A DNA stretch of 63,826 bases, filler included, from Reclinomonas americana ATCC 50394 (lineage: Eukaryota), in assembly GCA_048213135.1 (NCBI GenBank). It is 8 parts of 4 records of this genome, joined end to end, with 100 filler letters (N's around TTAATTAATTAA, not from the genome) between each part and the next. Parts side by side here need not be neighbours in the genome. Positions count along the whole stretch, not along the records: positions 1 to 30,160 come from PS015106.1; 7 more parts are not named here. One strand, 5' to 3'. The stretch's first letter is position 1; every line of letters begins with the position of its first letter. Positions 1 through 49,273 of the stretch are shown piece after piece. The position numbers and the translations under genes are program-made. The notes beneath the pieces were generated by a model. It was given only the letters and a program-made list of their open reading frames with translations. It had not been told where the DNA came from and searched no databases.

Positions 1-51
1 ACAATCAGTCTTCGACTGCGACATAGGGCAGCAAGGCATCGTGTTGCCCAC

Positions 52-596
52 CTGTTCACCCGGCGGCAGAATCAAGGAACTGACATTGCAAAAGAGGAGC
101 AAGGAGTGAGACGGGGGTTATAGAGAGGGGAGAGACGGGGCAAATGCCGGCGCAACATCATGCTCTGCGTGCAGGAGAAAGCAAGAGTGAGGTCGATGAC
201 GGCGGATTGGACAACAATAATAAGCACAACTCACCGTGCCTGACAACCGCCGCACACACACGCACCGAAGAACAGCACAGTGAGCATATACAGAGAGAGG
301 GAGGAGAAGCGACTGGTACTTGCACACACACCATTGCTGTGTTGCCATCAATGAGCATCATTATTATGTACACAACGAGAGAGTGGTCACATTTGTTGGA
401 ACTCACCCGCGTGCTTCGTCCAGCTTGCGAATCATCTTCTTCACACGGAATTGCTCTATTCACATATGTGGAACACAGTGAGCAGCAGGTGCGACGCATG
501 AAAAGGAGAGCGTCGGAAGTAGTTAGTGATGTGCATGTACACCGTCGCACTCAACACCAAGCACGTACAGCTTGAAACGCCGTTCGACAGACAGAC

Positions 597-629
<33 letters not shown>

Positions 630-754
630 CAACAGCACAGGCGAGCTCAAGTCTCTCTATTCTCTCTATCTGTGCGTGTGTGTGCACACCATGCCCCAAA
701 AAAGCACGCACCAATGTTGACATCGTACGCCGAGTTTGCCGAGGACGACGCCAT
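52..754 (-). CDS. ETF1: Eukaryotic peptide chain release factor 1, 5' part (continues beyond window start)
   Basis: Exons 754-712, 455-407, 336-332, 239-235, 164-157 and 79-52, all with GT..AG introns, splice to [46 protein letters not shown]. This matches the eRF1 N-terminal consensus ([31 protein letters not shown].DQ). Confidence 0.92.
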
Positions 755-901
755 GGTTAACGTAAGGAGAGTGGAGGAAGAGTGAGGCGGAGGGGGATAA
801 CAAGCGTGCGCCCACGCCGAAGTGATATGAGTGAGAGGGACAGTCGCTCGCGCATCGTCATCTGTCCCCGTTTCCACATCGCTGTCAACACAACATCACG
901 C

Positions 902-5643: not shown

Positions 5644-8600
5644 ATGTCGAGCGAAGGCGCCTCCGCCTCAGCTGCGCCTGCTGGCGATGCTGCTGCTGCT
5701 TCACAACCCCAAGAAGCGCCTGTGCGCAACACAGCGCGTTTGGACCTGCTGCGTAGCATCGAGCGAGAGATGCAACAGCACTGGCGCGAGGAGCATGTGT
5801 ACGAAGTGGATGCGCCTGCCGAGGGAGTTGCGTGCTTGTGGCCTGTCATACACAGAGATTATCCGGTGAAGAGCAACAAGTGTGGGGGGAGCGACTTGTG
5901 TGAGTTGTCAGTCGGGCATCACCACCCACCTGTACCTCAAACACGTACTTCTATTTTGAGTCTGCGTTCGTCGTGTCTGCTGCTCTGCACTCGAACAACA
6001 CTCTCTCCTGCTCACACCACGGCGCAGAGAAGAGAGAAAGGAGTGGGCGAGGGCGTCATTTCCTCGCACATGCGCAACCTCACTCACTCACTCGCTCACG
6101 TGCGTCTGTGCAGGAGGCTGCGCAAGATAAGTTCTTTGTGACCTTCCCGTTCCCGTACGTCAACGGCCGTCTGCATCGTTGCGTCTCGTTGCTGTTGTTG
6201 TCGGAAGAAGTGTGCGAGAGTGAGAGTGCCGGATTTGACGAGTAGTCGTGTGCGCAGTTGGCCACGCCTTCTCCGCCATGAAGAGCGAGGTGGCGGTGCG
6301 TTTCCAGCGTCTCATGGGCAAGCGCGCTCTGTGGCCGTTCGGCTTCCACTGCACCGGCATGCCGATTGCTGTTGCGTAGTGTTCGACTGTGTTGTCGTCT
6401 GTGTGTGTTGTTTCGTTGACCTCATCTCGTCGTCGTTGCGCAGGCGTCGGCCGTGCGTGTCAAGCAAGAGCTGGAGGCCGAGGCGGCGGCCAAGGCGGCG
6501 GCTGCCGCGGCCGCTGCTGCACCGCCCGCTGCTGCGGCTGCTGCTGCACCTGCCGATGGTGCGAAGAAGAAGGGTGGCGATGCGGGNNNNNNNNNNNNNN
6601 NNNNNNNNNNNNNNNNNNNNNNNNNNNNNNNNNNNNNNNNNNNNNNNNNNNNNNNNNNNNNNNNNNNNNNNNNNNNNNNNNNNNNNNNNNNNNNNNNNNN
6701 NNNNNNNNNNNNNNNNNNNNNNNNNNNNNNNNNNNNNNNNNNNNNNNNNNNNNNNNNNNNNNNNNNNNNNNNNNNNNNNNNNNNNNNNNNNNNNNNNNNN
6801 NNNNNNNNNNNNNNNNNNNNNNNNNCGGCAAGAAGGGTGGCAAGAAGGGTGACAAGGCCGAGGCCCCCGCTGCTGCTGCCTCTGCGGCTTCTGGCTCGTC
6901 GTCTACCGACCCGGAGGCTGCGCTGGGCAACTTCCGTGGCAAGAAGACCAAGCTGGTGTCCAAGGGTGGCAACATGCGTCAGATCGACATTCTGCGTGAA
7001 ATGGGTGTGCCGGCAGAGGAGATCCCCAAGTTTGCCGATCCCTACCACTGGCTGCACTACTTCCCTCCGTTTGCCATGGTGCGCCGTGCTCGTGCATCGT
7101 CACTGTACTGTTGTTGCTGTTGTTCATTGTGGTGGTCTTTCGCAGGAGGACTTGCAAGACTTTGGCCTGCATGTCGACTGGCGCCGCTCGTTCATCACCA
7201 CCGACGTGAATCCCTACTACGACTCGTTCATTCGCTGGCAGTTCCAGCACCTGCGCCGTCTCGACAAGATTCGCTTCGGCAAGCGCTACACGATCTACTC
7301 GCCGGCTGACGGTCAGCCGTGCCAGGATCACGATCGCCAGGCGGGATGCGAAGGTGTGCTGCCGCAGCAGTACACGCTCATCAAGATGCGTGTGCTGGAG
7401 CCGTATCCAGATGCGCTGTCGTCGCTGGCCGACTCTGGCCGCCCAGTGTTCTTGGCGGCTGCCACTCTGCGCCCGGAGACCATGTACGGTCAGACCAACT
7501 GCTGGGTGTTGCCGGAGGGCGAGTACGGCGCGTATGCCATGCGCTCGGGTGACATTTTCGTGATGACGGAGCGTGCTGCACGCAGTTTCGTGGCCCTTGT
7601 CACAATGTGCTCTCGCGCGTGTGTGTGTGTGATCAGTCTCTCACGACCGATGCAGATGCCTCGTTCCAGGAGATGTTGGAGGGCGTTGTCGGCGAGTTCA
7701 AGCCGCTGGCCTCGTTCACCGGTCAGGATCTGATTGGCGCGTGGTTGAAGGCGCCGCTGACGCCGCTGGAGCGTGTGCCGGTGTTGCCCATGCTCTCAGT
7801 GTCGACCGAGAAGGTGTGTACGCGTGTGTGTGTCTCTTCTTTTACCTGACCGGGCGTTATCGCTGACGCATCAACAGGGCACTGGTGTCGTCACCTGCGT
7901 ACCGAGTGACTCACCCGACGACTACGCCAACCTGATGGACCTGAAGACCGACGCTGCTCTGCGCGAAAAGTACCATGTCGAGGAGAGCTGGGTGGCCGAT
8001 CTGGAGCCGATCCCGATCATCACCATCCCGGGCTTTGGCCGCCTGCCCGCTGCCGAGGCCTGCTGGCGCCACAAGGTGATTTCGGGCAAGTCCAAGGAGG
8101 GTCTGGCCGCGGCCAAGGCCGAGGTCTACAACGCCGGTTTCTACAAGGGCGTGATGTCGGTGGGCGAGCATGCCGGAACGTGAGTACGACTGATCTTGCC
8201 GTGTGGCGTGTCTGAGGCTGACGTAGTGTGTGTGTGTGGGGTGATGCAGGACCGTCATGGCTGCCAAGGAGCGCATCAAGAGCGACTTGGTGGCCTCTGG
8301 CGACGCTGCGCTCTACTCGGAACCCGAGCGTGAGGTCACGTCTCGCTCCGGCGACGACTGTGTGGTGGCGCTGTGCGATCAGTGGTACCTGACCTACGGC
8401 GAGGAGGATTGGAAGCAGGCAGCTGCCGCGTTGCGTCGCACACAGTGTTTGCAGGGTAGTGCTTGTCGCCTGTGTTGGTTTCTGACTTTTGGTCCGTGTA
8501 GTGTGGTCTCGAAGCTGGAGACGTACCAGGCGATGACCAAGGAGCAGCTGGAGATTACGGTGAACTGGCTGAAGGAGTGGGCGTGCTCGCGCACGTTTGG

Positions 8601-10621
8601 TCTCGGCACGGCCCTGCCGTGGGACGAGTCGTACTTGATCGACTCGCTGTCGGACTCGACCATTTACATGGCGTTCTACACGGTGTGCCACTTGCTCCAG
8701 GGCAACTCGTTGGACGGATCGGAGGTCGGCCCAGCTGGCGTGCGGCCAGAGCAGCTGTCACCCGAGGTGAGTGGGGAGGAGAGTTTGAGGAAAGTGCACC
8801 ATCACGATGCAGTCGGTGCTCACCTTGGCATGTCCAACAGGTGTGGGACTACGTCTTCCTGGAGGGCCCGTACCCACCACAATCTGGCATTCCGGAGGAG
8901 TCGCTGGCCAAGCTGCGTCGCGAGTTCAAGTACTGGTACCCGGTCGACTTGCGCGTCAGCGGACGTGACCTGATCAACAATCACTTGATTATGTTCATCT
9001 ACAATCACGTCGCCATCTTCCCGGAGGTGCGATCACCATGTCAACCGCCGTCTATTTTATGTCCTCATGCTTACATTGTTTCTTTGGTGTCGTGCAGTGG
9101 GCGCACCCGCGTGGTATTTTCTGCAACGGCTTCATCCTGGTCGACGGCAAGAAGATGTCGAAGAGCGAGGGCAATTTCATCACCGTCCAGAGTTTCGTGC
9201 GCCATGCGATTTTTTTCATTGTCTCGTCTGTCGCTGACTCTTTTCTTCTTGCAGACGCCGTGCGACAGTACGGTGCCGATGCTGCTCGCTTTGCGCTGGC
9301 GGATTCGGGCGATGGCCTCGATTTCGCCAACTTCCTGCCCGACTACGCCGATCGTATCATTCTGACGCTCACCACCGAGCTGGCGTTTTTGGAGAACACC
9401 ATGAAGGACCTGAGCCAGTGCCGCACGGATGACCACTTGTCGTTCTTTGACCGTGTGTTCCGCGCCGAGATTGCTCACGCCGCCGCGGCCACTCGCGGTT
9501 ACTTCTCCAAGTTGCGTGTGTTGTGGGAGCGCGTGTTTCGACTCGTCGACGCGTCGCTAATGGTGACACAGGATGGTTTTCCACGACGCCCTGCGCACCG
9601 GCTTCTACGACCTGACGAGTGCCATGAAGCGATATCTGCTCGTGTACAGTTGCGCCACCGATGCTCTCACAAAGTCAACGCCTACACAACACGACTTCTG
9701 TTGCTTATCAAGCGTGTGGTGTGCACACAGACCGCGACCTCAGCCGCATGCACCGCGACACCATTTTGCAGTACATGGAGGTGCACGCCATCCTCATTGC
9801 ACCGGTGTGCCCTCACTACGCCGACTATGTGTGGCGCAAGATTCTGGGCAAGGTATGTTGTCTCCCTGCCATGTGTGTCGCTCGAGAGAGTGTCTGACTC
9901 GTGAGCAGAGCGGCAGCGTTGTCAACGCACGGTGGCCGGAGCTGCCAGAGACCCCGGTGTTGATGGTGCAGGCAACGTTCCTCGACAAGGTGCTGCACGA
10001 CTGCCGTGTGAATATCAAGGACGTGCTCACTCGTGGCGGTGGCAAGAAGGCCAAGGTGCGTCAGTGCGCGCGCGCTCACACACACTCTCTGCTCTGGCTT
10101 TGCCTCATATTCTCACTGTGTGGTGCACAGGTGGCGGCTGACGTGCCAGCTCCCGACTGTGGTTACATTTTTGTGGCCGACACGTTCTCCGAGTGGCAGC
10201 AAATCACTCTGGAGGTGTTGAAGCGCGAGTATCATGCCAATGGCAACAGCATTCCGCGCACCATTCGCTCGACGCTGGTCAATGTGCCGGCGTTGAGACC
10301 GCTGATGCAAAAGGTCATGTTCTTTGTGGATCTGGTGGCGGTGAGTACTACGTGTGAAAGAGGTAGAGAGGGAACACAGGTGTTGGTTGCTCATGTGTGT
10401 ATGTACAGGCCGCCATTCCGGAGCGCGGCGAGGAAGCTTTCGAGAACCGCGCTGTCTTCTCCGAGCGTGAGGTGCTGGAGGACAACCGTGCATTCATCTG
10501 CCAGAGCCTGGGCATTGCGGACTTTACGGTGTTCTCCGCCGACGATGCCTCGGCGCCGGAGCCGGACAAGCGCGCCAACGCCATGCCCGGCAAGCCGACC
10601 TCGCACTTTTTTCGTCGCTGA
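5644..10621 (+). CDS. LARS1: Cytoplasmic leucyl-tRNA synthetase (assembly gap 6587-6825)
   Basis: [14 protein letters not shown] (HIGH), [20 protein letters not shown]1 motifs [16 protein letters not shown] and [36 protein letters not shown]-terminal AMPGKP. About 16 visible introns. Confidence 0.97.
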
Positions 10622-10881
10622 GCGGTCGCTGACGGCACCGCAGCATCCTAGCGAGGCCGTCGTGCAAGTGATGGAACCTGTGACAGAGCGTGGTGTAGAG
10701 GTGGTGGCCGCTGTGGAGGTGGCATCGGGAGTGGCGGCTGTGCCGTGGTGGGCCATTTTGTTTGCTGTGGTGATGGGAGGCACGGCGGTGGTTTCGCGTG
10801 TGTTGGATGAATGAATTGCATGCAGTGTAGTGATGTGGAGACTCTATACTATGACGACGACGATGCAGTGCTGCTGCGCGG

Positions 10882-11543
10882 TCAACAAACGAGGGAGCCT
10901 GCAGAGGAGCAACAATGAGTGGCGATGACAAGCGAATGCAGCGGCGGCCGCACGCACCTGCTGCAATGCCACCGAGTGCGGTTATCAGTGCGAGTTTCTT
11001 GCTCACCGGATCCTCGGCAAACAGCATCATCCCGTGCGACGTGTCACCGGCCATCTTGCGCGGCTGCAGATTGGCGACGACCACACCCTGTGCGTGATCA
11101 CAGACATCGGCATTAGCGATTGTCATCCACACACACACAAGAGAGAGAAACCCCGATGCACCTGCTTTCCGACGAGATCCTGCGGTGCAAAGTGCTGTTG
11201 CACACCGGCGAGAATCGTGCGAGGAGTCGCCTCGCCCACATCCACTTGCATGCGCAGGAGTTTTTTGGATTTCGGCATGATCTCGCACGACACAATGGTG
11301 CCCACCAGCAGCTGCAGCTTGGCCACGTCGGCGAACTCGACGGGAGAGAACACGGGTGCAGAGGGAGAGGGAGGGGGAGAGGGTGAAGGAGAGGGCTCTC
11401 TGTGTTGTCTTTCATCAGCCACTGTGCAGGATGGTGCGGAGGCAAGTCCAACGCAACGAAGTGAACGCTCGAACGAGGTGGCGCAGAGGGAGGAGCTGCG
11501 ATGGTTGACGAGAGAGGCACTGCAGGCGCGTCAGAAAGAACAT
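10882..11543 (-). CDS. Stand-alone tRNA-binding OB-fold protein (Trbp111/CsaA/MetRS-C-like), possibly organelle-targeted
   Basis: FADVAKLQLLVGTIVSCEIMPKSKKLLRMQVDVGEATPRTILAG...VVANLQPRKMAGDTSHGMMLFA. N-terminus MFFLTRLQCLSRQPSQLLPLRHLVRAF is Arg/Leu/Ser-rich with no acidic residues. Confidence 0.85.
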
Positions 11544-22827: not shown

Positions 22828-25380
22828 TTACTCAACGAGGAACACTTCGTAGTCTGCCACTTGGAACTTGTGCGACCCCATCAGTGTTGTCGTGTCACAT
22901 GCTGCACCGTCTGTGCTCAGATATTGGGACGGAAGGTTACTGAGGCTGTTGCTGTTGCTGTTGCAGTTGTCAGCCAAGCGAAGATCAGGAGTACCAAAGT
23001 TAGGTCCATCTTCACGGCTGTGAAACACAGCATTTGGCTTCTTGTCGCTCTTCAGTGCAAAGCGACGCGCAGTTGCACCACTCCACGAAGCCGAGAACAG
23101 GAAGCTAGTGCCCGATGGATCGGCGGCATAAACACCATATGCAGGAGACGTCCATGAGACAGGCGTGTATCCGCCAGAAACTCGTCCGGTCGACGACTTG
23201 GCCACGACAAGCGTCGGTCTGCAAACAGTCACTCATCCATCAGCCATCAAAAACACCCATCTCTTTCTCTCCTTCCTCACTCACTCACCCACGATTGTCA
23301 CATCGCTGGTGGAATGTGGCTGCCCTGAACCCATCTCGACTGCCTTTGAACAGCAACGTCAACTTGGGCGCCTTTCCGCCGCTGCCCCGCGCTTGCTGCA
23401 CCCACTGCAGCACCACTCGCCCATCCGCAGCATTCAGCAGATCACTGCCAAATTTTCCCTCGGCCAGCTCCCGCTCCTCTCGTTCCCTGGCGATCCGCTC
23501 GCGCTCCTCTCGTTCCCTCGCCAGCCTCTCACGTTCCTCCTGCTCCCTGGCCAGCCGCTCGCGTTCCGCCGCCTCTCGTTCCTGGATCTCTCGTACATGC
23601 ACCTCCAGAGGCTCGAGACGGGCAAGCAGCTGCAGTTGGACAAGAGGCAGAGTAAGAAAAGGAGACAAACGCAATTAACCCCTGAGTGATCACACAACAA
23701 ACCTGAGCAACACCTCTCTCGAGAACTTCACGTAGGCGCTGCTCAGCGGCGAGTTGCTGGCGACACTCGACAAGCACTCCCACACTTTCGGCAAGACGCT
23801 CATCCGTTGCTTGCCTTGCTCGTTGCTCAGCCGCTAGTCGCTCATCCGCCGCCCGCATATCAACTTGCCTCGCCTCTCTCTCCTGGACCAGCTGCTCCCT
23901 GCTCGCAGCCACCATCTGAGACAGCTCTCGCACCCGGCCATGCAGCTGTGCAAGACAAGTCAGCAGCATGAATTGGCCAGCAGCATCCACTCCATCATTC
24001 CAAACTCACCTCTCGCAGCGGTCGCTCCACTCGCAGCACATCACACACTCGCTCGTGCTCCTCCCTCTCGCCAATGATCCCACGCCATTCACACCCCAGT
24101 TCACCACCACGACATACTGTGTGTTGCAGTCGGCACTCCGTTTCTGCCACAAGAGAACAAATCAGTGTCCTTCCCTCGCTTCCTATCACTCTCACTTAAT
24201 CACACACACACACACTCTCCCTCCCTCCCTCCCTCCCTCTCTCCTTCCCTCCCTCCCTCTCCTTCCTTCTTCTCCCTCTGTCTCTCCCTCTCCCTCTCCC
24301 TCTCCCTCTCCCTCCCTCACCAAGATGCCGCTGCATCTCCGCCAATGCACACAGCTGCTCACATCCACGCGGACACACTCACATACACCCGCTCCAGCTG
24401 TGCTCCACCATCTCGCTCAGCGCCAATCGCACTCCACATCCGAGCGGACACTCGCGCAAACAGCCGCTCCACTCATGCTCCGCCGTGCGATCGAGAGTCA
24501 TCCGCTGTCCACATCTCTCGCATGCATACGGGCACTGCGTGAGGCCATGTGTGCGGTAATAGTCGCCTACCGTCTGCTCATCCACAGTGAGGACAAAGCA
24601 CAAGACAAACAACTTCATCAGACAACACAAACCATGGGTGCGTGGCACAGCGGGCATGTGATCTGTGGTGCTCTCTCATGTCAACATCATTGGCGACTTG
24701 CGGAACAACAACAACACAGAACCTTCATGTTGCTGTACATGAGCTGAAACCGTCGCTGAACCTCGTGCATTGTGCCGAGGGACGTGACTCCATCGCCACA
24801 CAGATCCGCTCCAGCCTCCGTCACATGCTCACTGTCACATGAGACCCCACAAAAGAGAGAGATGGAAGTCAGTGAACAGCTTCTCCCTTCCCTCTCATGC
24901 ACACTCACCGACACAAGTGGTGCAGCTCGCTGGCACACAGCACGAAATCCGGAGCACACAGATCCTGACAACAACACAATGTCAATGTCATCAATGCACG
25001 CACGAGAGAGAGAGAGAGAGAGAGACGACTCACAGTGCTGCATTCCCTTTCTCTCTCTCTCTCTCTCTCACTCTTCGCACACTGACCATGCACACTGGGC
25101 ACACGTATTCCTCCGCCAATGTCCGCGACTCTTGCGCGACTTGCTCCATCCACAAACGCGGTGGTTCCTTCTCCTTCTCTCCCTCCTCAGATGGAGGACG
25201 ACGATGCACAGCGCGCACCACACAAAACACGTATTGTTCCTCACTGTCGCCAGTGAGTCGCATCACTTGCTGCTCGAGAACAACCTGAGTGTCATCAGCA
25301 GGAGGAGGAGGAAGAGGAGGAGGAGCAGACCCACTGCCTTCTCCACCACTGCCTCCCACGTGCGCGTCTTCGAAACCCAT
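22828..25380 (-). CDS. RING-like + TRAF-type zinc fingers + coiled coil + TLDc protein, copy 1
   Basis: MGFEDAHV...EEYVCPVCM|DLCAPDFVLCASELHHLC; CP.GC repeats and CRGGELGCEWRG...EHERVC; coiled coil; TLDc motifs LLFKGSRDGFRAATFHQRCDNRGPTL, GGYTPVSW, SFLFS, GPNFG, YEVF. Confidence 0.88.
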
Positions 25381-25460: not shown

Positions 25461-27833
25461 TCACTCAACGAGGAAGACTTCGTAGTCTGCCACCTGGAAC
25501 TCGTGCGACCCCATCAGCGTCGAGTCGTCAGTTACTGCACCATCAGTGCTCTGATAGTGGTACGGAAGGTTACTGGTGCTGCCGCTGTTGCTGATGCAGT
25601 TGTTCTCCAAGCGGAATTCGTTGCTGCCGAAGATGGGTCCACAAGCGGAGTTGTGGAAAGCGGCATACTGTTTCTTATTGCCCTGCAGTGCAAAGCGTCG
25701 CGCACTTGCACCGTTCCACGATGCCGAGAACAAGAAGCTGGTGCCGGATGGATCGGCGCCAAATGCGCCTTTTGCGGGAGACGTCCATGAGACAGGCGTG
25801 TATCCGCCAGAAACTCGTCCTGTCGACGACTTGGCCACGACAAGCGTCGGTCTGCACGCACACAGTCACTCATCCATCACCCACTAAGCACAGCAAGCAA
25901 CTCTCCTTCCACAATCACTCACCCACGATTGTCACATCGCTGGTGGAATGTGACTGCCTTGAATCCATCTCGACTGCCCTTGAACAGCAGCGTCAACTTG
26001 GGCACACTCCCGCCGCTGCCTCGCGCCTGCTGCACCCATTGTAGCACCACTCGCGCATCTGCCGCACTCAGCAAATCACTGCAGCTGTTAATTTTCCTGT
26101 CCGCCCGCTCCCGCTCCTCTCGCTCTCTGGCCATCCGCTCACGCTCCTCCCACTCCCTCGCCTGCCGCTCCCTTTCAGTAGCCTCTCGTTCCTGAATCTC
26201 TCGCTCTCGCATCTCCAGCGGTTTGAGACGAGCGAGCAGCTGCGGACGGAAGAATGAGGGGAGTGAAGCGCTCGATAACCACTGACATTTCACACAACAG
26301 ACCTCAGCAACGCCTCTCTCGAGAGATTCACGCATGCGGCGCTCAGCTGCCAGTTGCTCATCGGTCGCTTGCTGCTTCTGAGCCAATCGCTCCTCAGCAG
26401 CTTGTCTCGCTTCTCTCTCGTGAGCCACCATCTGCGACAACTCTCGCACTCGACCATGCAGCTGTGCAAACAAATGCAAGTCACCTCAGCATGAATGCAT
26501 GGCCAGCAACTTCCACTGTCCATACTCCAAACTCACCTCTCGCAGCGGTCGCTCCACTCGCAGCACATCACACACTCGCTCATGCTCCCCCTTCTCCCCA
26601 CCAATAATCCCACGCCATTCACACCCCAGTTCAGCACCACGACACACTGTCTGCTGCAGTCGGCATTCCGTTTCTGTCACAAGAGACCAAACATAAGTGT
26701 CATGACAGCACTTCACTCCTTCAATGCACTCACCAAGATGCCGCTGCATATCCGCCAATGCACACTGCTGCTGACATCCACGCGGACACGCTCGCATGCA
26801 CCCACTCCAGCTGTGCTCTGCCATCTCACTCAGCGCCAGCCTCGCTCCACATCCGAGTGGACACTCGCGCAAACAGCCGCTCCACTCGTGCTCCGCCGTG
26901 CGATCCAGTGTCATCTGTTGTCCACATCTCTCGCATCCATGCGGACACTGCGTGGGGCCATGTGTGCGGTAATAGTCGCCAACCGTCTGTTCATCCACGG
27001 TGAGGAGAGAGAAGCCAAGACAATCAACTCTCCATGAACACACAAACCATGGGAGCGTGACACAGCGGGCATGCAATCTGCGGTGCTCCCTCATGTCAAC
27101 ATCACTGGCAACTTGCACACATCACTCAGCAATCACACACAACCTTCATGTTGCTGTACATGAGCTGAAAACGTTTCTGCACCTCGTGCATTGTGCCGAG
27201 AGATGTGACTCCATCGCCACACAGATCCGTTCCAGCCTCCGTCACGTGCTCGCTGTCGCATGCAATCAACAAAGTGAGAGGAGGTCAGTGAATAGCTTCC
27301 TCTCTCTTCCCCTCTAATATACACAACTCACCGACACAAATGGTGCAGCTCGCTGGCACACAACACGAAATCCGGAGCACACAGATCCTGACAATGACAT
27401 GTCAATGCCATTTCAACAATACACACACACGCAAGAGTGCGTGCGTGTGCTTGTGGGTGTGTGAGAGAGAGAGAGTGAGTGAGAGAGAGAGAGAGAGTGA
27501 GTGAGTGAGTGAGAGAGAGAGAGAAACACTCACCATGCACACCGGGCATAGATACTCGTCTGCCACCACTCGCGATTCTTGCGCGACTTGCTCCATCCAC
27601 AAACGTGATGGCTGTGTCTCTTTCTCTCCCTCCTCTGGTAGAGGACGACGATGCACCGCGCGCACCACACAAAACACGTATTGTTCCTCACTGTCGCCAG
27701 AGAGTCGCATCACTTGCTGCTCGAGAACAATCTCATCTTCGGAAGCAGCAGCAGGCGGAGGAGGAGGAAGGGGAGGAGCAGATCCACTGCCTTCTCCGCC
27801 CCTGTCTCCAACGTGTGCGTCTTCGAAACCCAT
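25461..27833 (-). CDS. RING-like + TRAF-type zinc fingers + coiled coil + TLDc protein, copy 2
   Basis: Same exon-intron structure and motifs as copy 1, with a shorter coiled coil. Confidence 0.88.
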
Positions 27834-27971: not shown

Positions 27972-30105
27972 TCACTCAACGAGGAACACTTCGTAGTCTG
28001 CCACTTGGAAGCTCGGCGATCCCATAAGTGTCGTCTTGTCACATGCTGCACCGTCAGTGCTCTGATAGTAGTACGGAAGGTAGCTGCAGCTCCTGCTGTT
28101 GCTGTTGCTGTTGCTGTTGCAGTTGTTCTCCAAGCGGATATCGTTGCTGCCGAACATTGGTCCATATTCAGAGCAGTGCCCCACAGCATTTGGCTTCCTA
28201 TCGCTCTTCAGTGCAAAGCGTCGCGCGCTTGCGCCACTCCACGATGCCGAGAACAAGAAGCTGGAGCCGGATGGATCGGCGGCATGAACACCAGATGCAT
28301 GAGACTGCCACGAGACAGGCGTGTACCCGCCACACACTCGTCCCGTCGACGACTTGGCCACAGTCAGCGTCGGTCTGCACGCACACAGTCACTCATCCAT
28401 CACCCACTAAGCACAGCAAGCAACTCTCCCTCAATCACTCACCCACGATTGTCACATCGCTGATGGAATGTGGCTGCTGCAAACCCATCTCGGCTGCCCT
28501 TGAACAATAAGGTCAGTCTGGGCACACTCCCACCGCCCCCTCGCGCTTGCTGCACCCACTGCAACACCACTCGCCCATCCGCAGCATTCAGCAGATCACT
28601 GCCAAATTTTCCCTCGGCCAGCTCCCGCTCCTCTCGTTCCCTGGCGATCCGCTCGCGCTCCTCTCGTTCCCTCGCCAGCCTCTCACGTTCCTCCTGCTCC
28701 CTGGCCAGCCGCTCGCGTTCCGCCGCCTCTCGTTCCAGGATCGCTCGTTCTCGCACCTCCAGCGGTTTGAGACGATCAAGCAGCTGCAGATAAACACAAG
28801 GTATAGTGAGGAAAGATGAGATGCACTTGGATGAGCCACCAAACACAAAACAGACCTCAGCAACACCTCTCTCGAGAGCTTCACGTACGCGCTGCTCAGC
28901 GGCGAGTTGCGCGGTGCACACGGCAAGTCGCTCATCTGTTGCTTGTCTCGCCAGCAGCTCAGCAGCAAGTTGTTCATCTGTTGCTTGTCTCGCTCGTTGC
29001 TCAGCGGCAAGTCGCTCATCTGTCAATTGAAGTCGTTCCTCGACAGCTTGTCTCGCCTGCTGCTCGGCCGCCAGTCGCTCATCCGCAGCTCGCATTTCAG
29101 CTTGCCTCGCCTCTCGCTCGTATGCAACAATCTGAGACAGCTCTCGCACCCGGCCATGCAGCTGTGCAAGACAAGTCAGCAGCATGAATTGACCAAATGC
29201 ATCCACAGCCTACACACCTCTCGCAGCGGTCGCTCCACTCGCAGCACATCACACACTCGCTCGTGCTCCTCCCTCTCGCCAATGATTCCGCGCCATCCAC
29301 ACCCCAGTTCACCACCACGACACACTGTGTGCTGCAGTCGGCACTCCGTTTCTGCAACACAAGAACAAAGTGAACAAATCAGTGTCATGACAGCACTTCT
29401 CTCCTTCCAAGCACGCTCACCAAGATGCCGCTGCATCTCCGCCAGCGAGCACTGCTGCTGGCACCCACGCGGACACGCCCGCATACACCCACTCCAGCTG
29501 TGCTCCACCATCTCGCTCAGCGCCATTCTCGCTCCACACCCGAGCCGGCACTCTCGCAAGCATCCACTCCACTCATGCTCCGCCGTGCGATCCAGAGTCA
29601 TTTGTTGTCCACATCTCTCGCATCCATGCGGACACTGTGACAGGCCATGGATGCGGTAATAGTCGCCCATCGTCTGTCCATCCACGGTGAGGGGAGAAGC
29701 CAAGACTATCAACTCTCCATGACAAACACAAACCATGGGAGCGTGACACAGCGGGCATGCAATCTGTGGTGCGTCAAGTCAACATCACTGACAACATGCA
29801 TACATCAACAAACAACAGCAACACACAACCTTCATGTTGCTGTACATGAGCTGAAAACGTTTCTGCACCTCGTGCATTGTGCCGAGGGACGTGACTCCAT
29901 CGCCACACAGATCCGCTCCAGCCTCCGTCACATGCTCACTGTCGCATGAGATCCCCACAAAGAGACAGGAGGTCAGTGCACAGCTTCTCCCTCCCTCTAA
30001 TATATACACTCACCGACACAAGTGGTGCAACTCGCTGGCACACAACACGAAATCCGGAGCACACAGATCCTGACAATAACACCATGTCAATGTCATCAAT
30101 GCACG

Positions 30106-30145
<40 letters not shown>

Positions 30146-30294
30146 GTACCCACAATGCGTNNNNNNNNNNNNNNNNNNNNNNNNNNNNNNNNNNNNNNNN
30201 NNNNTTAATTAATTAANNNNNNNNNNNNNNNNNNNNNNNNNNNNNNNNNNNNNNNNNNNNACGTACGTACGAACGAGACGAGACGAGACGAGAC

Positions 30295-38600: not shown

Positions 38601-40399
38601 TGCATGCCCTTGCGTGTGCCAACACGAGCTGCCTCTTCCATGGCATCCCTTGGCGACCTCGTACACTCACCATCGGCATGTGCGATCGATCCATCGTTCT
38701 TCACCCACATGCGCGCCACGATCACGAGCAGCCTACTTTCGCAGCACTTGCGGTCCATGCGCGGCACCATTATCATCGCCACCCGTCGTTCGCCGGCCCA
38801 GCCACGTACTACCACTCACTCAACTCAACTCACTTCTCTTCTTCTCCTTCTCTATCCATCTCTCTCTAGTCTGCCACTCTCACCTTGCGCAATCTTCTCT
38901 CGTGCTTTCCGGACTTGATCTCGCAGCTGCACGTATTGCTTGAGGTCGGCAACCGGGTCGATCACGGACGCACACTCTGGGCACCGACCGTCGTGCGTGT
39001 TCAAGTACTCCACAATGGCTGGCGAGTTCACAGTCAGCACAAACAAAGCACCCGCCATTCATTATCTCTCGTGCTGCACGGCGCGACTCACCAGGTCGAT
39101 TGTAGGCGTGATTGCAGCATGCTGTGCGCACCGGATCCACCATCCACTTGTGACTCAGCGGGCACAAGAACGAGGCATCGCCCACGGACGCCGCCAGCTT
39201 CTTCAGCATGCTGGTGAACTGAGATCTGTGCAGCCGGTCAACAACAACAACGAAGGAGACACACAACAAAAGGCGGGGCGACGCAACTCGTCGGCAATCG
39301 GCTTCATTTGCACATTGTCGGTGCCGTCGCCGGTCTTGCTCAGATACTTGGTGGGCACACCTTTGGTGTTTTGCTTTCTCGGTGCACGCTCTGTGCGCAG
39401 CTGTTGCATGCTCTTTTTCATTTGTGTACGCGCCTCACGAACCATCCTGTGTACAACAAACGGCACGTGAGCACTGCAGTCCATTCCCCTCACCTCCGGG
39501 ACCACAAACAGAAAAACAACGCAACGTTCGATGCCGCTGACTGTGCTCCCTGCTCATCATTCGCATCATCTCATCCTCCGTCAGCTGCACTTGCGGCTGC
39601 CCGGGCGCCGACCAAATCGTACTTGCCGCCGTCGCAACCGGCGCTGCAGCCAGTACCGTCGTGGTGGCGCCAGCAGCGCCAGCGCCACTGGATGCACCAC
39701 CGCCACCCGTCGCCGCCGACACACTCGACGAGCCCATGGTGGCAGACGCCTGTCCTCCTCCTCCTCCCCCCATCCCTCCGTGCGTGGCTCCAGATGCCGC
39801 TGCTGCTGCCGCAGCGGCCGCAGACGACGACGACTCCTTGGGTCCAGTCGACGAGCTGTGTCGCGTGTTAGTTGTAACGTCAATTGTCAATCATCCCCTC
39901 ACCAAGAAGAGGAGCAGCAACGCAACGCTGTGAGAATCATCGAGCCACGACCAACCGGCCTGGTACGCGGAACACGCTTCACCACCACGCAGATGTTGCG
40001 AGGAATCAGTGACGTATCGCGGTCAAACTCTGCATTGCACCACACCAAAAAAAAAAGTGAGATGACCGACATGCTTCCCACTCACACTCGCCACGCGCAC
40101 ACACACAAGCACACGCACACAGCACGCCTCGCACAGCTCTCTCTTGCACACACACAAAGATGAGGCACACCTTCACCAGTCTCCGCATGTGTAAACTGCA
40201 AGTCAAAGTCCGTGGAGCGACTCATGCGCCGCTTCTCCATCACCAACCGCTTCAACTCGCCCACTGAGATGTGACTGGACGACACGGGAACCTGATCCGC
40301 CACCGTCTCTGCAGCGCGCGCGCGAACATGTCACCCACACTCACACATTCTCCAGCGATCAGCCCACTCACCTGCGAAGAAACGGAAGAAGACCGACAT
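35685..40399 (-). CDS. RBBP6: RBBP6/Mpe1-like protein: DWNN ubiquitin-like domain, RING/U-box, Pro-rich and RS/charged tail
   Basis: MSVFFRF...HISVGELKRLVM...DFDLQFTHAETGEEF.RDTSLIPRNICVVVKRVP (DWNN); LTEDEMM; KGVPTKYL; FLCPLSHKWMVDPVRTACCNHAYNRPAIVEYL...RCPEC; long RS-rich last exon. Confidence 0.85.
35857..36155 (-). repeat. 39-bp coding tandem repeat (~7.5 units, KERKHESTDKAGER-type)
   Basis: Repeated GACTCGTGCTTCCGCTCCTTCCGCTCACCCGCCTTGTCCGTG-type units in the RBBP6-like last exon. Confidence 0.9.
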
Positions 40400-43796: not shown

Positions 43797-43895
43797 NNNN
43801 NNNNNNNNNNNNNNNNNNNNNNNNNNNNNNNNNNNNNNNNTTAATTAATTAANNNNNNNNNNNNNNNNNNNNNNNNNNNNNNNNNNNNNNNNNNN

Positions 43896-45477
43896 NGCTG
43901 CCGCGGAAGCTGCCGCCCAACACCACACCACCGACGATACCGGGGCTACTGTGGTAGTGGTGCAAGTAGTGCTGCTGCTGTGGCGCCGACGACGAGAGCG
44001 AGGGGAGTGGCGGCAGCGGCGGCAACAACATTGGCTCCACCACCGACAAGTGCATGTGCTCCTCCTCCTCCTCGTCCTCACTGTGCAGTGGCGTCTGGTC
44101 GGGAGTAGCATCGGGGCTGCTCTCAATCACAAACTCCAGTGGGCCCGCCGGATGGATCCGCGACATTTGCACCGTCGCCGGCAACATCTGGCCGCCATCG
44201 ATGCCATTGCGTGGCAGTGTCGACGAACCCGTGACTGCAAGTGTGTGGGGTAAGACACACGAACGCACACACACACACAGGCAAGGAGACGAAAACGCAC
44301 CAGCAGCAGGCACACAAATGGCACCACGCGTCTGCGGGTGATGCCGGCCGCCAAACGCCTGCTCATGCTGCTGCGGATGATGATGTTGGTACTGATGCAT
44401 GTGAATGTGCTGCAGCGGCTGCTGCTGGTGCTGGAGGTGGTGGTGGTGCGGCACCACCGGCGGCGGCGGCACCTCAAACATGGCCGGCTGCGGCACCGCC
44501 ACGGCCGACGACGGCGGCATCACACCCGCGCGATCCATATCCAACATCATGTCCATGTACGAGCTGCTGGCCGGCACCGACACCGTCCACCGCGCCGCCG
44601 CACTCACATCCTGCTGCTGCGGCTGCACCTGCGGATGCGGCTGGAACATGATGGTCGGATGCATCGCATAGTACTGCTGCTGCTGCGGCGTGTGTGAGAC
44701 ATACACCGGCTCCGAGTGTTGCTGCTGCTGCTGTGGTGGCGGAGGAACATAGTACATCGGCGCTTGCATGGGGAGAGGCGGTGCCGGTGGTGGTGGAGGC
44801 ATAAAGTCATCGGGGGAGCCGAATGGAAACTCACGGCCCTCACTCTCCAACGACGGAGTCGGTGTGGTGGGCTCTCGCTGCTGTTGCTGTTGTTGCTGTT
44901 GCTGTTGTTGTTGCTGTGCCATCATGTGCGACAAGTGACATGATGGCATGTCGAGCGTCTCGAAGCCCGGCTCACCAGTGTACGACTGCAACGAGTGCCA
45001 TAGTTTCGATCTGCGAAAACAAAAGAGCACGAAGAGGAGGAATGAGAGAAGGCAATCAATCATCGTCCGCTCTTATGTCAAACGACAGCGAATCACGTTC
45101 GGCGCTCTTAAACTCTCTCCGTCTCTCTCCATCTCCTCTCTGTACGTGGAGGACAGTGTGTGTTTGTGGAGAGAGAGGAGAAGCGCGTGTGTAAAGCGGT
45201 GCCATGACGTGTGCGCGGGGTAATCGCGCACCGCGTCGCCGCGACGCACTCTTTTGTTCCGCCCCACACACGCGCGCACAGTGGCAGTGTGTGCGTGTGT
45301 ATGACAGTGACAGTGACGCACACACATATAAAGGAGTGCGAGATGCGTGTGTGTGCGTGTGTGTGCGAGAGGAAATGGCAAACCACAAACACGCAACGTA
45401 TCAAAGAAGGAGTCGGAGGAGGCATATTGTTGTTGTTGCTGCTGCTGCTGTTGCTGCTGTTCTTGAGCGGCAAACAT
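43896..45477 (-). CDS. Q/P/H-rich protein N-terminus (transcription-regulator-like), 3' truncated
   Basis: Open Gln/Pro/His-rich exons with GT..AG boundaries. No folded domain in view. Confidence 0.5.
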
Positions 45478-45587: not shown

Positions 45588-48151
45588 TCAACGTCCAAGC
45601 GATAACAGATGTGTCCGGATTTCCTCGGCGCGCTTGGCCACGCGCCTCAGCTCGCTCAGATGCTGCGTCTTCCACTCCTCGTGTTGCGCCGCTGCGGATT
45701 CAGCGGCACGCAGCTTGTCGGCAATCGCGTGGCGACGGCCAATCAGCTGCTCCTGACGGCGTTCGGTTTCCGCGTCAGACGACGATGACCGCGGCAGGCG
45801 TTGCTTGGCGTCGTGGAGCGCCACCAACTCGGCAATGGCACGCAGTGCTTCGCGGCACTGGCGGGCCTCCTCGCGCGCTCGCTGGGCGGCTCCCTCCCGG
45901 TCGGCAAAATCGCGCAATCGGGACTCGATCTGCGCCACCTCGCCCCGAAGCGCGGCCTCGGCTTCCGCTTCCTTGTCCTCCACCTCCTCCTCTTCTTCCT
46001 CCTCTTGCGCCACCACTGCTTTCGCCACTTCCGCTTCTGAATAGTCTGCTGACGTGCTGTCGCCCCTCTTTTCCGCGTACAGTGGGGGAGGAGGTGGTGG
46101 TGGAGCTGGTGGTGGGTTGTCCCTCTCCTCCGTCACTTCCGCTTCCTCTTCCTCCTGCGGGAAGACACTCGGCGGTGATTCCCTGTCGACGACCAGTGGT
46201 GGTGGTGGTGGTGGTGGTGGTGGTGGTGGTGGTGGTGGTGGTGGTGGTGGTGGTGGTGGTTGTGGCCGTGGCATCTCATGTGGCACTGGTCGCACAAAGG
46301 CAGACGGTGCCGAGCGGCTGGAGACGTTGCCGGCGGGCGCGGCAGGTGGAACTGCCGAACAAGTGAGACAAGTGAACACATTGTCGTCAGTGTGCAAAGC
46401 AACGCACCACGCAATTGTCGTGGTTGTGGAGCTGCTGCTGTTGCAGTTGTTGCAGTGGTGGGTGCGGCAAAGGGCTTTGGCAAACCTGCGCACTCGACAA
46501 ATGAGATACTTTCAGAAAACACACCATGCTCGACAACCGCCCACGCAACTGCGAGGCACTGGTCGTTGAGGATCTGCGAGACGACAGTGCGCGGTGAGTG
46601 AATGGAGACTGGTTTGCCGACGCACACAGTAACGCAACTGGCCGCGCCCGGCACACCACGTTGCGGTGCGCGTGTGGCAGTGGTCACGACTGTGCGCAAC
46701 GAACAATCAAGTGAGCGGGCATGAATACATCGTACAGATCGGAAGCACTCGCCACCACACCTTGCAGCTGGTGATGACTGTCGGCCGACGAGTCGCTGAT
46801 GGAGATTTCTGCGAGGCAGCTGCTGGTGAGCGCTGCGTTCTCCACACACAAAACGAAGCTTCAGTCTCGCCTCACCACCGCCACCGGCACGCGGAATGCT
46901 GGACAGCTCGAGCGCAGGTACCGAAGGCACAGGAGCGGGCCGGCGCACCGCAGCAGGAGCAGAAGGAACCGCTGCTGTCAAGCCGAGTGACGACTGAAAC
47001 ATGCCGGGGATGCGTGGCGCAGGACGAGGAGGTGGCTTCGGAACCAGCCAGTCGAGTGTGGTCGGCAGGTGACTTAGAGCAGCCCTGTGGGTGCCTGCAC
47101 GTAAGCACAATATCGTCGCCACACAAACATGCACAAGACGAACCGCTGGCGAATCTCCTCATCTCGAGCATTATCTCGCGCCATGCGTGCCTGTGCAGCT
47201 CGCTCGCGCTCCTCGCGCCGCTCGGCAAATCCCTGCTCGATCTCCCGTGGCAGGTGCAGACGCGCTAGTGCAGGAAGTGCTCCACTGCCACTACTGCCGC
47301 CGGCTGCGGCCGATCCACCCGCCCCCAAGCGTCGACCCTTGCCAAGCGCTTTTTCCTTCCAATGATGCGCAATGCGTTCCACCAGCTGAAACACCCGCGC
47401 GTTGCGCTGTGCCTCCTGCGCAGCCAGATACTCCAAGCGGCGAGAACGGCGTGCAAGTCCCACCTCCAGCCACCGTGTCACGCCCTGTTTCAACAGTCGC
47501 TCCTGTCGCGCCCGCAGCGCATCACGTTTCTCCGCATGACGCAGTCTCCTTTGGTCACGGTGGGCGACAAACGCCGCAAACACTCGCCGTTTCAACGTTC
47601 GCTCCCCAAAGTGCGTCGCTGCACGTGCCTGCGTAGCTTCTTCTTGCCGACGCACAAACTCGGCACGCCAACGACGCCACACTTGTTGCTTCTGGCGCAA
47701 CACGCGATACCGTGTCGCCAGCATTCGTCGTGCCTGGTGCACCACGCGTTAGATGACTCGAATCGTGACGCGTACAAGAGGGAGTGGACACACCTTTTTC
47801 AGTCGCCGCACGCTCGTATACTCGCGCCACGCACGCAGCGTGCGCGACATTTGACGACCCCAGTTGAAGGCATTCGCGCGTGCCCTTGCCACGCGATTCA
47901 TCACGCGATGCGCGTACAGATCCATCCAGTAGCGCATGACTCGGCGTTTGATACCCAACTGCAGTTTGCGTCGCACCGCCTGAGCTGCCTCCATTTCCTC
48001 TGCCTCGAAGCGCAGTCTCTCATCGGTGCGCTCGCGCCACAATGCAAAGGCGTCGCGCAGACGCGATGTGGTGGCCAGACGTCGCGCCGCTTGCGAGCGC
48101 AGTCGATCCACTCGCCACCGCCGGCACACACGAAACCACTCACTCACACAC
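45588..48151 (-). CDS. Sfi1-like centrin-binding repeat protein, C-terminal part
   Basis: Periodic Trp repeats (LRDAFALWR, KRRVMRYW, SRTLRAWR, KQQVWRRWR, LKQGVTRW), followed by a Pro-rich segment and terminal coiled coil. Confidence 0.7.
46196..46261. repeat. (GGT)n microsatellite encoding poly-Pro on the minus strand
   Basis: About 22 GGT units inside the last Sfi1-like exon. Confidence 0.9.
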
Positions 48152-48692
48152 CTGCGAGGGAGAAGCNNNNNNNNNNNNNNNNNNNNNNNNNNNNNNNNNN
48201 NNNNNNNNNNTTAATTAATTAANNNNNNNNNNNNNNNNNNNNNNNNNNNNNNNNNNNNNNNNNNNNGGGAAGGGGTAAGGGGGATAGGGGGATTGGGAGG
48301 GAGAGAGAGAGATAGAGAGACACAGATTGATAACGAGAAAGAAGTGAGAGAGATAAGGAGGAGGAAGACATGAAGAAGCCAGGAGATCGAAGAATGCGAA
48401 TGCAGCAGGTGAGGTGATGGAGACAACGATATGAGCAGCGTGACAAGCCGGTCGATCATGAGACTGTGAGAGACAGAGGACTGCAGACCAAGTGGTGCTG
48501 ATTTGTGGGGTTGCGAAGGTCAGAGGAAGGAGGGTCGCGAGACGTTGAGTATGAAGCACTGACAGTAGACTGAGACACGAGGAGAGTGATGGGGAGGGCA
48601 CGGCAGTGAGCGTGCTGAGACAACGAGAGGCACTGTATGACATTGACAGATAAACTGTGAGTGAGTGAGTGAGTGAGTGAGTGAGTGAGTGA

Positions 48693-48746
<54 letters not shown>

Positions 48747-49273
48747 ACATGCATGTTTGCGGTGAAAGAATGTCTATGGTATCTCTTTCATCATCTTTCG
48801 CTGTTTGGAGTGTCACTGTTCGTTGAACATGAAGGATAGATAAGGAGAATGATTGTGATAGCGAATGCGGGAAAGAATGCAACGAGCGCGGCAACAGAAG
48901 ACCGACAATGAGATATAGAGGACTGCAGAAGGGAATGAGAATGCCAGGAGAGTGCTGAGGGATGATGGGGAATCATAGGAAAGTTGTTGAGTGAAGTAGA
49001 GAGAAGAGCGACAAACGAGAGCAAATTGGATGAGCGTGAGTGATTGAGAAAGAGGGAGGGCAACGAGAAAAGCGCTGAAGAGAGATGAGGTAGGGATGTA
49101 AGAGAGAAAGAAGCAGATAAGAAAGAGAGAGCAGACAAGAGAGTCAGCGAGGAAGAGTGTTCGTGTCTGTCTCTGTCTGTCTTTCATATCATCTTGTCCT
49201 CAATGTGTGTCTCTTCTCTCCCTCTTCTCTCCCTCTTCTCTCTCCCTTCCTCCCTCTCTCTTCGCCCCTTCAG

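Follow-up and report, generated by a model that had tools for sequence, protein, structure and literature searches.

The GTS loop of the release factor eRF1, a protein with a three-domain architecture (Pfam eRF1_1/2/3), is the loop that recognizes stop codons. At the left end of the Reclinomonas americana ATCC 50394 DNA analysed here (63,826 nt in all, referred to below as the window), a first-pass annotation placed the 5' end of an eRF1 gene whose GTS loop appears to be spread over exons of a few nucleotides each. This locus raises two questions. Are exons so small genuinely part of the gene and, if they are, do they belong to every message, do they form a cassette that can be skipped, or are they found in a copy that has ceased to function?

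Gene organization

The portion of the gene that falls within the window occupies positions 1-754 of the minus strand (Table 1). The three micro-exons are all contained in a gap of 327 nt between exon 2 (E2) and exon 6 (E6), and the 3' end of E2 supplies the first two bases of the Gly codon that precedes Asn. When the six pieces are joined by coordinate, they give an open frame of 46 codons in which G-N-G-T-S-M-I-S is contiguous. The codons for G31, G33 and I37 are each divided by a splice junction. Five introns are found within the first 138 coding nt of this part of the gene, and four of them within 18 coding nt.

Table 1. Predicted features at the 5' end of the eRF1 gene, and artificial joints of the window
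Feature	Positions	Strand	Length (nt)	Splice signals	Remarks
eRF1 exon 1	712..754	-	43	donor GTGCGT	ATG at 754-752; phase-1 end; N13 = human N11 at offset +2
Intron 1	456..711	-	256	GTGCGT...TAG	CTCAC 23 nt from 3' end
eRF1 exon 2 (E2)	407..455	-	49	acceptor TAG, donor GTGAGT	helix alpha-1 region
Intron 2	337..406	-	70	GTGAGT...CAG	CTCAT 15 nt from 3' end
Micro-exon 1, CAATG	332..336	-	5	CAG before, GTGTGT after	last base of Gly, Asn codon, first base of next Gly
Intron 3	240..331	-	92	GTGTGT...CAG	CTCAC 41 nt from 3' end
Micro-exon 2, GCACG	235..239	-	5	CAG before, GTGAGT after	last two bases of Gly, Thr codon
Intron 4	165..234	-	70	GTGAGT...CAG	CTCAC 23 nt from 3' end; top donor and acceptor scores of the set
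Micro-exon 3, AGCATGAT	157..164	-	8	CAG before, GTTGCG after	Ser and Met codons, first two bases of Ile
Intron 5	80..156	-	77	GTTGCG...CAG	CTCAC 27 nt from 3' end
eRF1 exon 6 (E6)	52..79	-	28	CAG before, GTGGGC after	last base of Ile, then S-L-I-L-P-P-G-E-Q
Intron 6 start	1..51	-			remainder of eRF1 gene past window edge
Artificial joints	30161-30260, 43797-43896, 48167-48266, 51881-51980, 55802-55901, 58668-58767, 62712-62811				N44-TTAATTAATTAA-N44

Identity of the encoded protein

The motifs that define eRF1 include NIKS, YxCxxxF and GGQ (PMC11277123). Neither NIKS nor an eRF1-type GGQ context was found elsewhere in the window, past whose edge the gene continues. The spliced translation was compared instead with 12 human eRF1 residues named in PMC3384315. 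In the human protein, helix alpha-1 spans N11-I21 and includes W15, K16, K18 and K19, and the loop region spans N30-M34 with G31-T32-S33 and is followed by the core residue I35 (PMC3384315). At an offset of +2, 10 of the 12 residues are identical and the remaining two are replaced by similar ones (W to F and K to R); at offsets of 0, 1 and 3, 1 of 12 matches. Within helix alpha-1, human N11, W15, K16, K18, K19 and I21 correspond to N, F, R, K, K and I (four identical, two conservative). Six of the 12 residues are encoded by exons 1-2 and so do not hinge on the micro-exon model. N-G-T-S-M-I makes up residues 32-37 of the spliced translation, again at +2 relative to human N30-I35, and is obtained when all three micro-exons are spliced in. 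Resting on 46 residues, the assignment of this gene to eRF1 can be considered well supported.

Uniqueness of the micro-exon solution

Within the 327-nt interval, all chains of AG- and GT-flanked pieces able to encode NGTSMI by any choice of synonymous codons were enumerated exhaustively. Exactly one chain was found, consisting of CAATG, GCACG and AGCATGAT. This single solution was unchanged in 24 of 24 settings (minimum intron length of 10-50 nt; donors GT, GC or AT; acceptors AG or AC). Dinucleotide-preserving shuffles of the interval did not yield any NGTSMI solution (0/20,000), and the number of solutions expected by chance from the base composition of the interval is 1.8e-8. The tripeptides NGT, GTS, TSM and SMI are contiguous in none of the forward frames of 760..1, so no ordinary exon could provide the loop instead. 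Translated without splicing, 456-52 contains 5 stops.

Both strands of the window were also scanned with crude criteria for intron-like segments (a local donor hexamer, a length of 50-100 nt, a branch-like motif and a YAG end). The scan returned 121 segments on the plus strand and 103 on the minus strand. In the whole window, the only chain of at least three segments spaced by no more than 15 nt is that of eRF1, in which four segments follow in a row; 20 block shuffles gave on average 58.65 segments and 0.25 chains of two or more. Because the criteria were drawn in part from the same eRF1 introns, the chain scan serves as supporting evidence and not as an independent test. The chain scan also turned up a possible 24-nt exon at 46535-46558 on the minus strand, flanked on each side by an intron-like segment that has a GTTGCG donor and a CAG acceptor; the gene concerned has no Pfam match.

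Agreement with the introns of a neighbouring gene

A cytosolic leucyl-tRNA synthetase (LeuRS) gene is located at about 5698-10613 on the plus strand (Pfam). Three homologues (P0007, P0002 and P0010) were placed on this gene by a purpose-written spliced aligner, and the 13 introns that were located identically in at least two of the three alignments were taken as the reference set. These introns are 56-80 nt in length, and the four eRF1 mini-introns (introns 2-5) measure 70, 92, 70 and 77 nt. The LeuRS acceptors are CAG in 12 of 13 cases and TAG in one; the mini-intron acceptors are CAG in all four. The LeuRS donor hexamers are GTTGCG (four introns), GTGAGT (three), GTTTCG (two), GTGTGT, GTGCGC, GTGCGA and GTATGT (one each). 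The donors of the mini-introns (GTGAGT, GTGTGT, GTGAGT and GTTGCG) use the hexamers of 8 of the 13 LeuRS introns, and GTTGCG, which begins eRF1 intron 5, is the most frequent LeuRS donor (4/13). Within LeuRS itself, 6 of the 13 donors belong to the unusual GTTGCG/GTTTCG class and not to GTRAGT.

All ten splice dinucleotides of the five eRF1 introns are canonical (GT...AG). The branch-like motif CT[ACG]A[CT], which has a background density of 0.0055 per nt, is present in five of five eRF1 introns at 15-41 nt from the 3' end (15, 41, 23 and 27 nt in the four mini-introns) and in 11 of 13 LeuRS introns at 11-30 nt. The motif of intron 3, at 41 nt from its acceptor, is outside the LeuRS range of 11-30 nt. 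The position-weight scores of the eRF1 splice sites fall within the LeuRS leave-one-out range, although matrices built from 13 introns discriminate weakly: the score of the micro-exon 1 donor is equalled or exceeded by 18% of the GTs in the window, and 10-20% of the AGs in the window score as high as the acceptors of micro-exons 1, 2 and E6. These matrices were rejected as a stand-alone discriminator because they are too weak.

The coordinates, flanking signals and joined 24-nt string of the first-pass annotation were all reproduced from the sequence by joining coordinates. Its structural claim, that the GTS loop is built from micro-exons of 5, 5 and 8 nt that ORF-based annotation cannot see, was borne out in every sequence-level test that was run (that the solution is unique and improbable; that splice signals, intron lengths and branch-like motifs are typical of this genome; and that the flanking exons encode an eRF1-like helix alpha-1). 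The anatomy of the locus, its statistical uniqueness and its match to the intron signals of this genome are matters of observation.

Exon size and intron density

In its best alignment, LeuRS has 17 introns over 1053 aligned codons, which comes to about 5 for each kb of coding sequence, and its 18 exons range from 39 to 439 nt, with none below 39 nt. As far as seen, then, exons of 5-8 nt are not a routine feature of this genome, and the intron density at the 5' end of eRF1 is several-fold over the local norm. Two tiny LeuRS exons, one of 6 nt at 5874-5879 and the other of 7 nt at 10652-10658, were considered and rejected: they occur in the alignment of P0007 only, at ends that align badly, and neither P0002 nor P0010 gave them. 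An introner-like origin of the mini-introns was also rejected. Pairwise local alignments among the four do not exceed those of shuffles, and the sole alignments above shuffles are those of intron 1 with introns 3 and 5, all three of which are CT-rich.

The LeuRS gene (5698-10613, plus strand) contains at least 17 short introns of 56-90 nt and an N gap at 6587-6825. Its best matches among homologues are 52% in the KMSKS region and 76% in the best conserved exon (about 64-73% for all other hits of this exon). The 76% match is to a EukProt entry that has 51% identity across the whole gene (540/1053). No match was obtained with the LeuRS C-terminal query. A metagenome scan with a LeuRS exon returned 80 loci with best-segment identities of no more than 67%, and no close relative or syntenic eRF1 was found among them.

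Proposed splicing model and alternatives

The locus is probably where a functional nuclear eRF1 gene begins, with three constitutive micro-exons lying between four short GT-AG introns. From the sequence we infer that these introns are actually spliced, that the micro-exons are constitutively included and that the introns leave in a particular order. In the proposed model, four ordinary short introns would break up 18 coding nt and so leave exons of 5, 5 and 8 nt. Because every intron has its own donor, branch-like motif, CAG acceptor and typical length, the spliceosome could recognize each of them as a unit (intron definition), and recognition of the tiny exons would not be needed. Judging from spliceosome footprints, a 5-nt exon is too small for acceptor-bound and donor-bound factors to be present simultaneously. 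As there is no room on such an exon for both complexes, the introns would most likely be removed one after another, with each splicing step fusing a micro-exon to its neighbour and enlarging that exon. Sequential removal of this kind would fit the behaviour of plant micro-exons, whose flanking introns are more often detained and have to be spliced post-transcriptionally (PMC8831610).

A functional protein would require the inclusion of all three micro-exons. By frame computation, the retention of any single intron leads to a premature stop in every case. Since partial skips and intron retention both run into premature stops, splicing errors should be non-productive, and selection for full inclusion is plausible.

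The first-pass annotation had further suggested a splicing-based switch, and the frame arithmetic behind that suggestion is correct: skipping of all three micro-exons (18 nt) stays in frame and deletes exactly NGTSMI, and skipping of one or two shifts the frame and leads to a stop within E6. The micro-exons might thus be a cassette that is skipped together in some condition to give an in-frame eRF1 without NGTSMI and with altered termination or readthrough, or partial skipping might serve autoregulation through NMD. This alternative is improbable, and so is its more detailed form. In it, position 407 would be spliced directly to position 79 in some condition and the loop-less eRF1 would, by analogy with human eRF1 isoform 2, compete with or retune termination, for example by a narrowed stop-codon specificity or a change in readthrough; the five out-of-frame intermediates and the intron-retention forms would act as an NMD-coupled throttle on the level of eRF1.

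Some features would suit such a cassette. With lengths of 5+5+8 = 18 nt, only all-or-none choices preserve the frame; the E2 donor GTGAGT is strong (a score of 7.1, matched by 2% of background GTs); and this genome apparently splices introns of 256-290 nt, which makes one of 327 nt possible. Human eRF1 isoform 2, which arises from alternative transcripts, has no GTS loop, a partial UGA-only activity and an effect on readthrough in vitro (PMC11277123). The switch, however, is suggested by the frame arithmetic: nothing in the sequence singles out the path that skips all three exons, and a sum divisible by 3 is a one-in-three chance event. A coordinated three-exon skip would need the definition of one long intron to beat that of four typical short ones. 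Deletion of NGTSMI would also take away the equivalents of M34 and I35, which are at or beside the hydrophobic core (PMC3384315), and may simply misfold the N domain. Findings in other organisms point the same way. In Creolimax, a unicellular holozoan, 211 genes show exon skipping versus 2172 with intron retention, and few differentially skipped exons keep the frame (PMC4739763). Coding micro-exons of plants mostly have a PSI of >0.5, which means that they belong to the major isoform (PMC8831610). If it were true, a regulatory switch of this type would be of real interest.

It is likewise improbable that the locus is an eRF1 paralogue in decay or a product of misassembly, with the working eRF1 (e.g. 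an uninterrupted copy) encoded elsewhere: the gene does run off the window edge once 46 codons have been read, the draft assembly contains N runs and, starting at 30161, artificial N44-TTAATTAATTAA-N44 linkers, and LeuRS, the other gene modelled in the window, has no exons so small, but the ATG is intact, the spliced frame is open, 10 of 10 splice dinucleotides are canonical, every eRF1 intron has a branch-like motif, the exact conserved eRF1 residues are kept, positions 1-800 are free of N, and an arrangement with a chance expectation of 1.8e-8 is not expected to survive decay.

Composition of the window

The window has a GC content of 56%, which fits neither the chlorarachniophyte Amorphochlora (27%) nor B. 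natans (45%), and an Rfam search of it gave no match. It contains seven identical artificial joints, each made up of 44 N, TTAATTAATTAA and 44 N, and TTAATTAATTAA carries a stop in each of the six frames. Small contigs of about 3-13 kb, joined together, make up the right half of the window, and gene order across the joints is not meaningful. Four N runs are longer (151-708 nt), and the gap inside LeuRS is one of these.

A number of other genes were noted. A gene for a tRNA-binding-domain protein (Pfam tRNA_bind, in two frames) at 10527-11530 on the minus strand converges on the 3' end of LeuRS. Three TLDc-domain ORFs (22831-23232, 25464-25865 and 27975-28388, minus strand) are spaced about 2.5 kb apart and have near-identical Pfam match coordinates; this trio looks like a tandem triplication. 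Two RNA-processing genes are located at 49102-51816 (plus strand) and 38883-40330 (minus strand), and the pair comprises a G-patch/GPKOW-type protein (G-patch_2 and GPKOW_C) and a DWNN-domain protein with a MIZ/Nse-type zinc finger. The window also contains an ORF of 758 aa.

Significance and comparison with known micro-exon systems

If transcripts confirm the proposed constitutive micro-exons, four introns in 18 coding nt would be among the densest intron packings described. ORF-based and standard spliced-alignment pipelines would drop the GTS loop or break the eRF1 gene, and from either outcome it might wrongly be concluded that this eRF1 recognizes stop codons differently or that a variant genetic code is in use. 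The locus would also be a natural test case for 5-nt exons under an intron-defining spliceosome, for the order of intron removal and for intron detention. No eRF1 micro-exons were found among the literature matches listed, as represented by their titles and the start of their abstracts, and the peptide GNGTSMIS gave no literature match.

The closest parallels to the micro-exons themselves are found in plants, which have coding micro-exons of 1-15 nt in conserved proteins, grouped in 45 conserved clusters and often absent from annotation (PMC8831610). The same source describes a rice transcript with adjacent micro-exons of 5 and 12 nt, validated by RT-PCR, 1-nt exons in APC11 and VPS55, and flanking introns that tend toward late splicing, after polyadenylation. 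The R. americana locus resembles this system in having coding exons of a few nt in a conserved protein and canonical flanking introns. It differs in that three such exons (5, 5 and 8 nt) are consecutive, that four introns fall in 18 coding nt, that the organism, as far as can be judged, is not a land plant and that the gene is eRF1. Among protist nuclear genomes, that of the dinoflagellate Amphidinium carterae is also reported to have very short exons, down to 3 nt (PMC12584245). Its intron features are very different, however, and the passages on these exons describe neither individual genes nor a tandem arrangement.

Three consecutive micro-exons, of 3, 18 and 22 bp, are also known from human RPS24 (PMC12207440, PMC11162997). 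Like the eRF1 locus, RPS24 shows a run of three micro-exons in a housekeeping translation gene. The RPS24 micro-exons, however, are alternatively spliced near the 3' end and alter the C-terminus, whereas those of eRF1 would all be needed for a universally conserved internal motif, and two of them are smaller. Human eRF1 isoform 2, in which the first 33 residues and with them the GTS loop are missing, binds the ribosome, has reduced release activity and is UGA-unipotent (PMC11277123). As a loop-less form of eRF1, it parallels the product predicted for skipping of all three micro-exons. Isoform 2 is an N-terminal truncation that starts at a downstream start codon, whereas the predicted skipped product would be an internal deletion of six residues. 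The class of micro-exons is thus already known, and what the R. americana eRF1 gene appears to add is a matter of degree, namely three exons of no more than 8 nt in a row inside a universally conserved functional loop.
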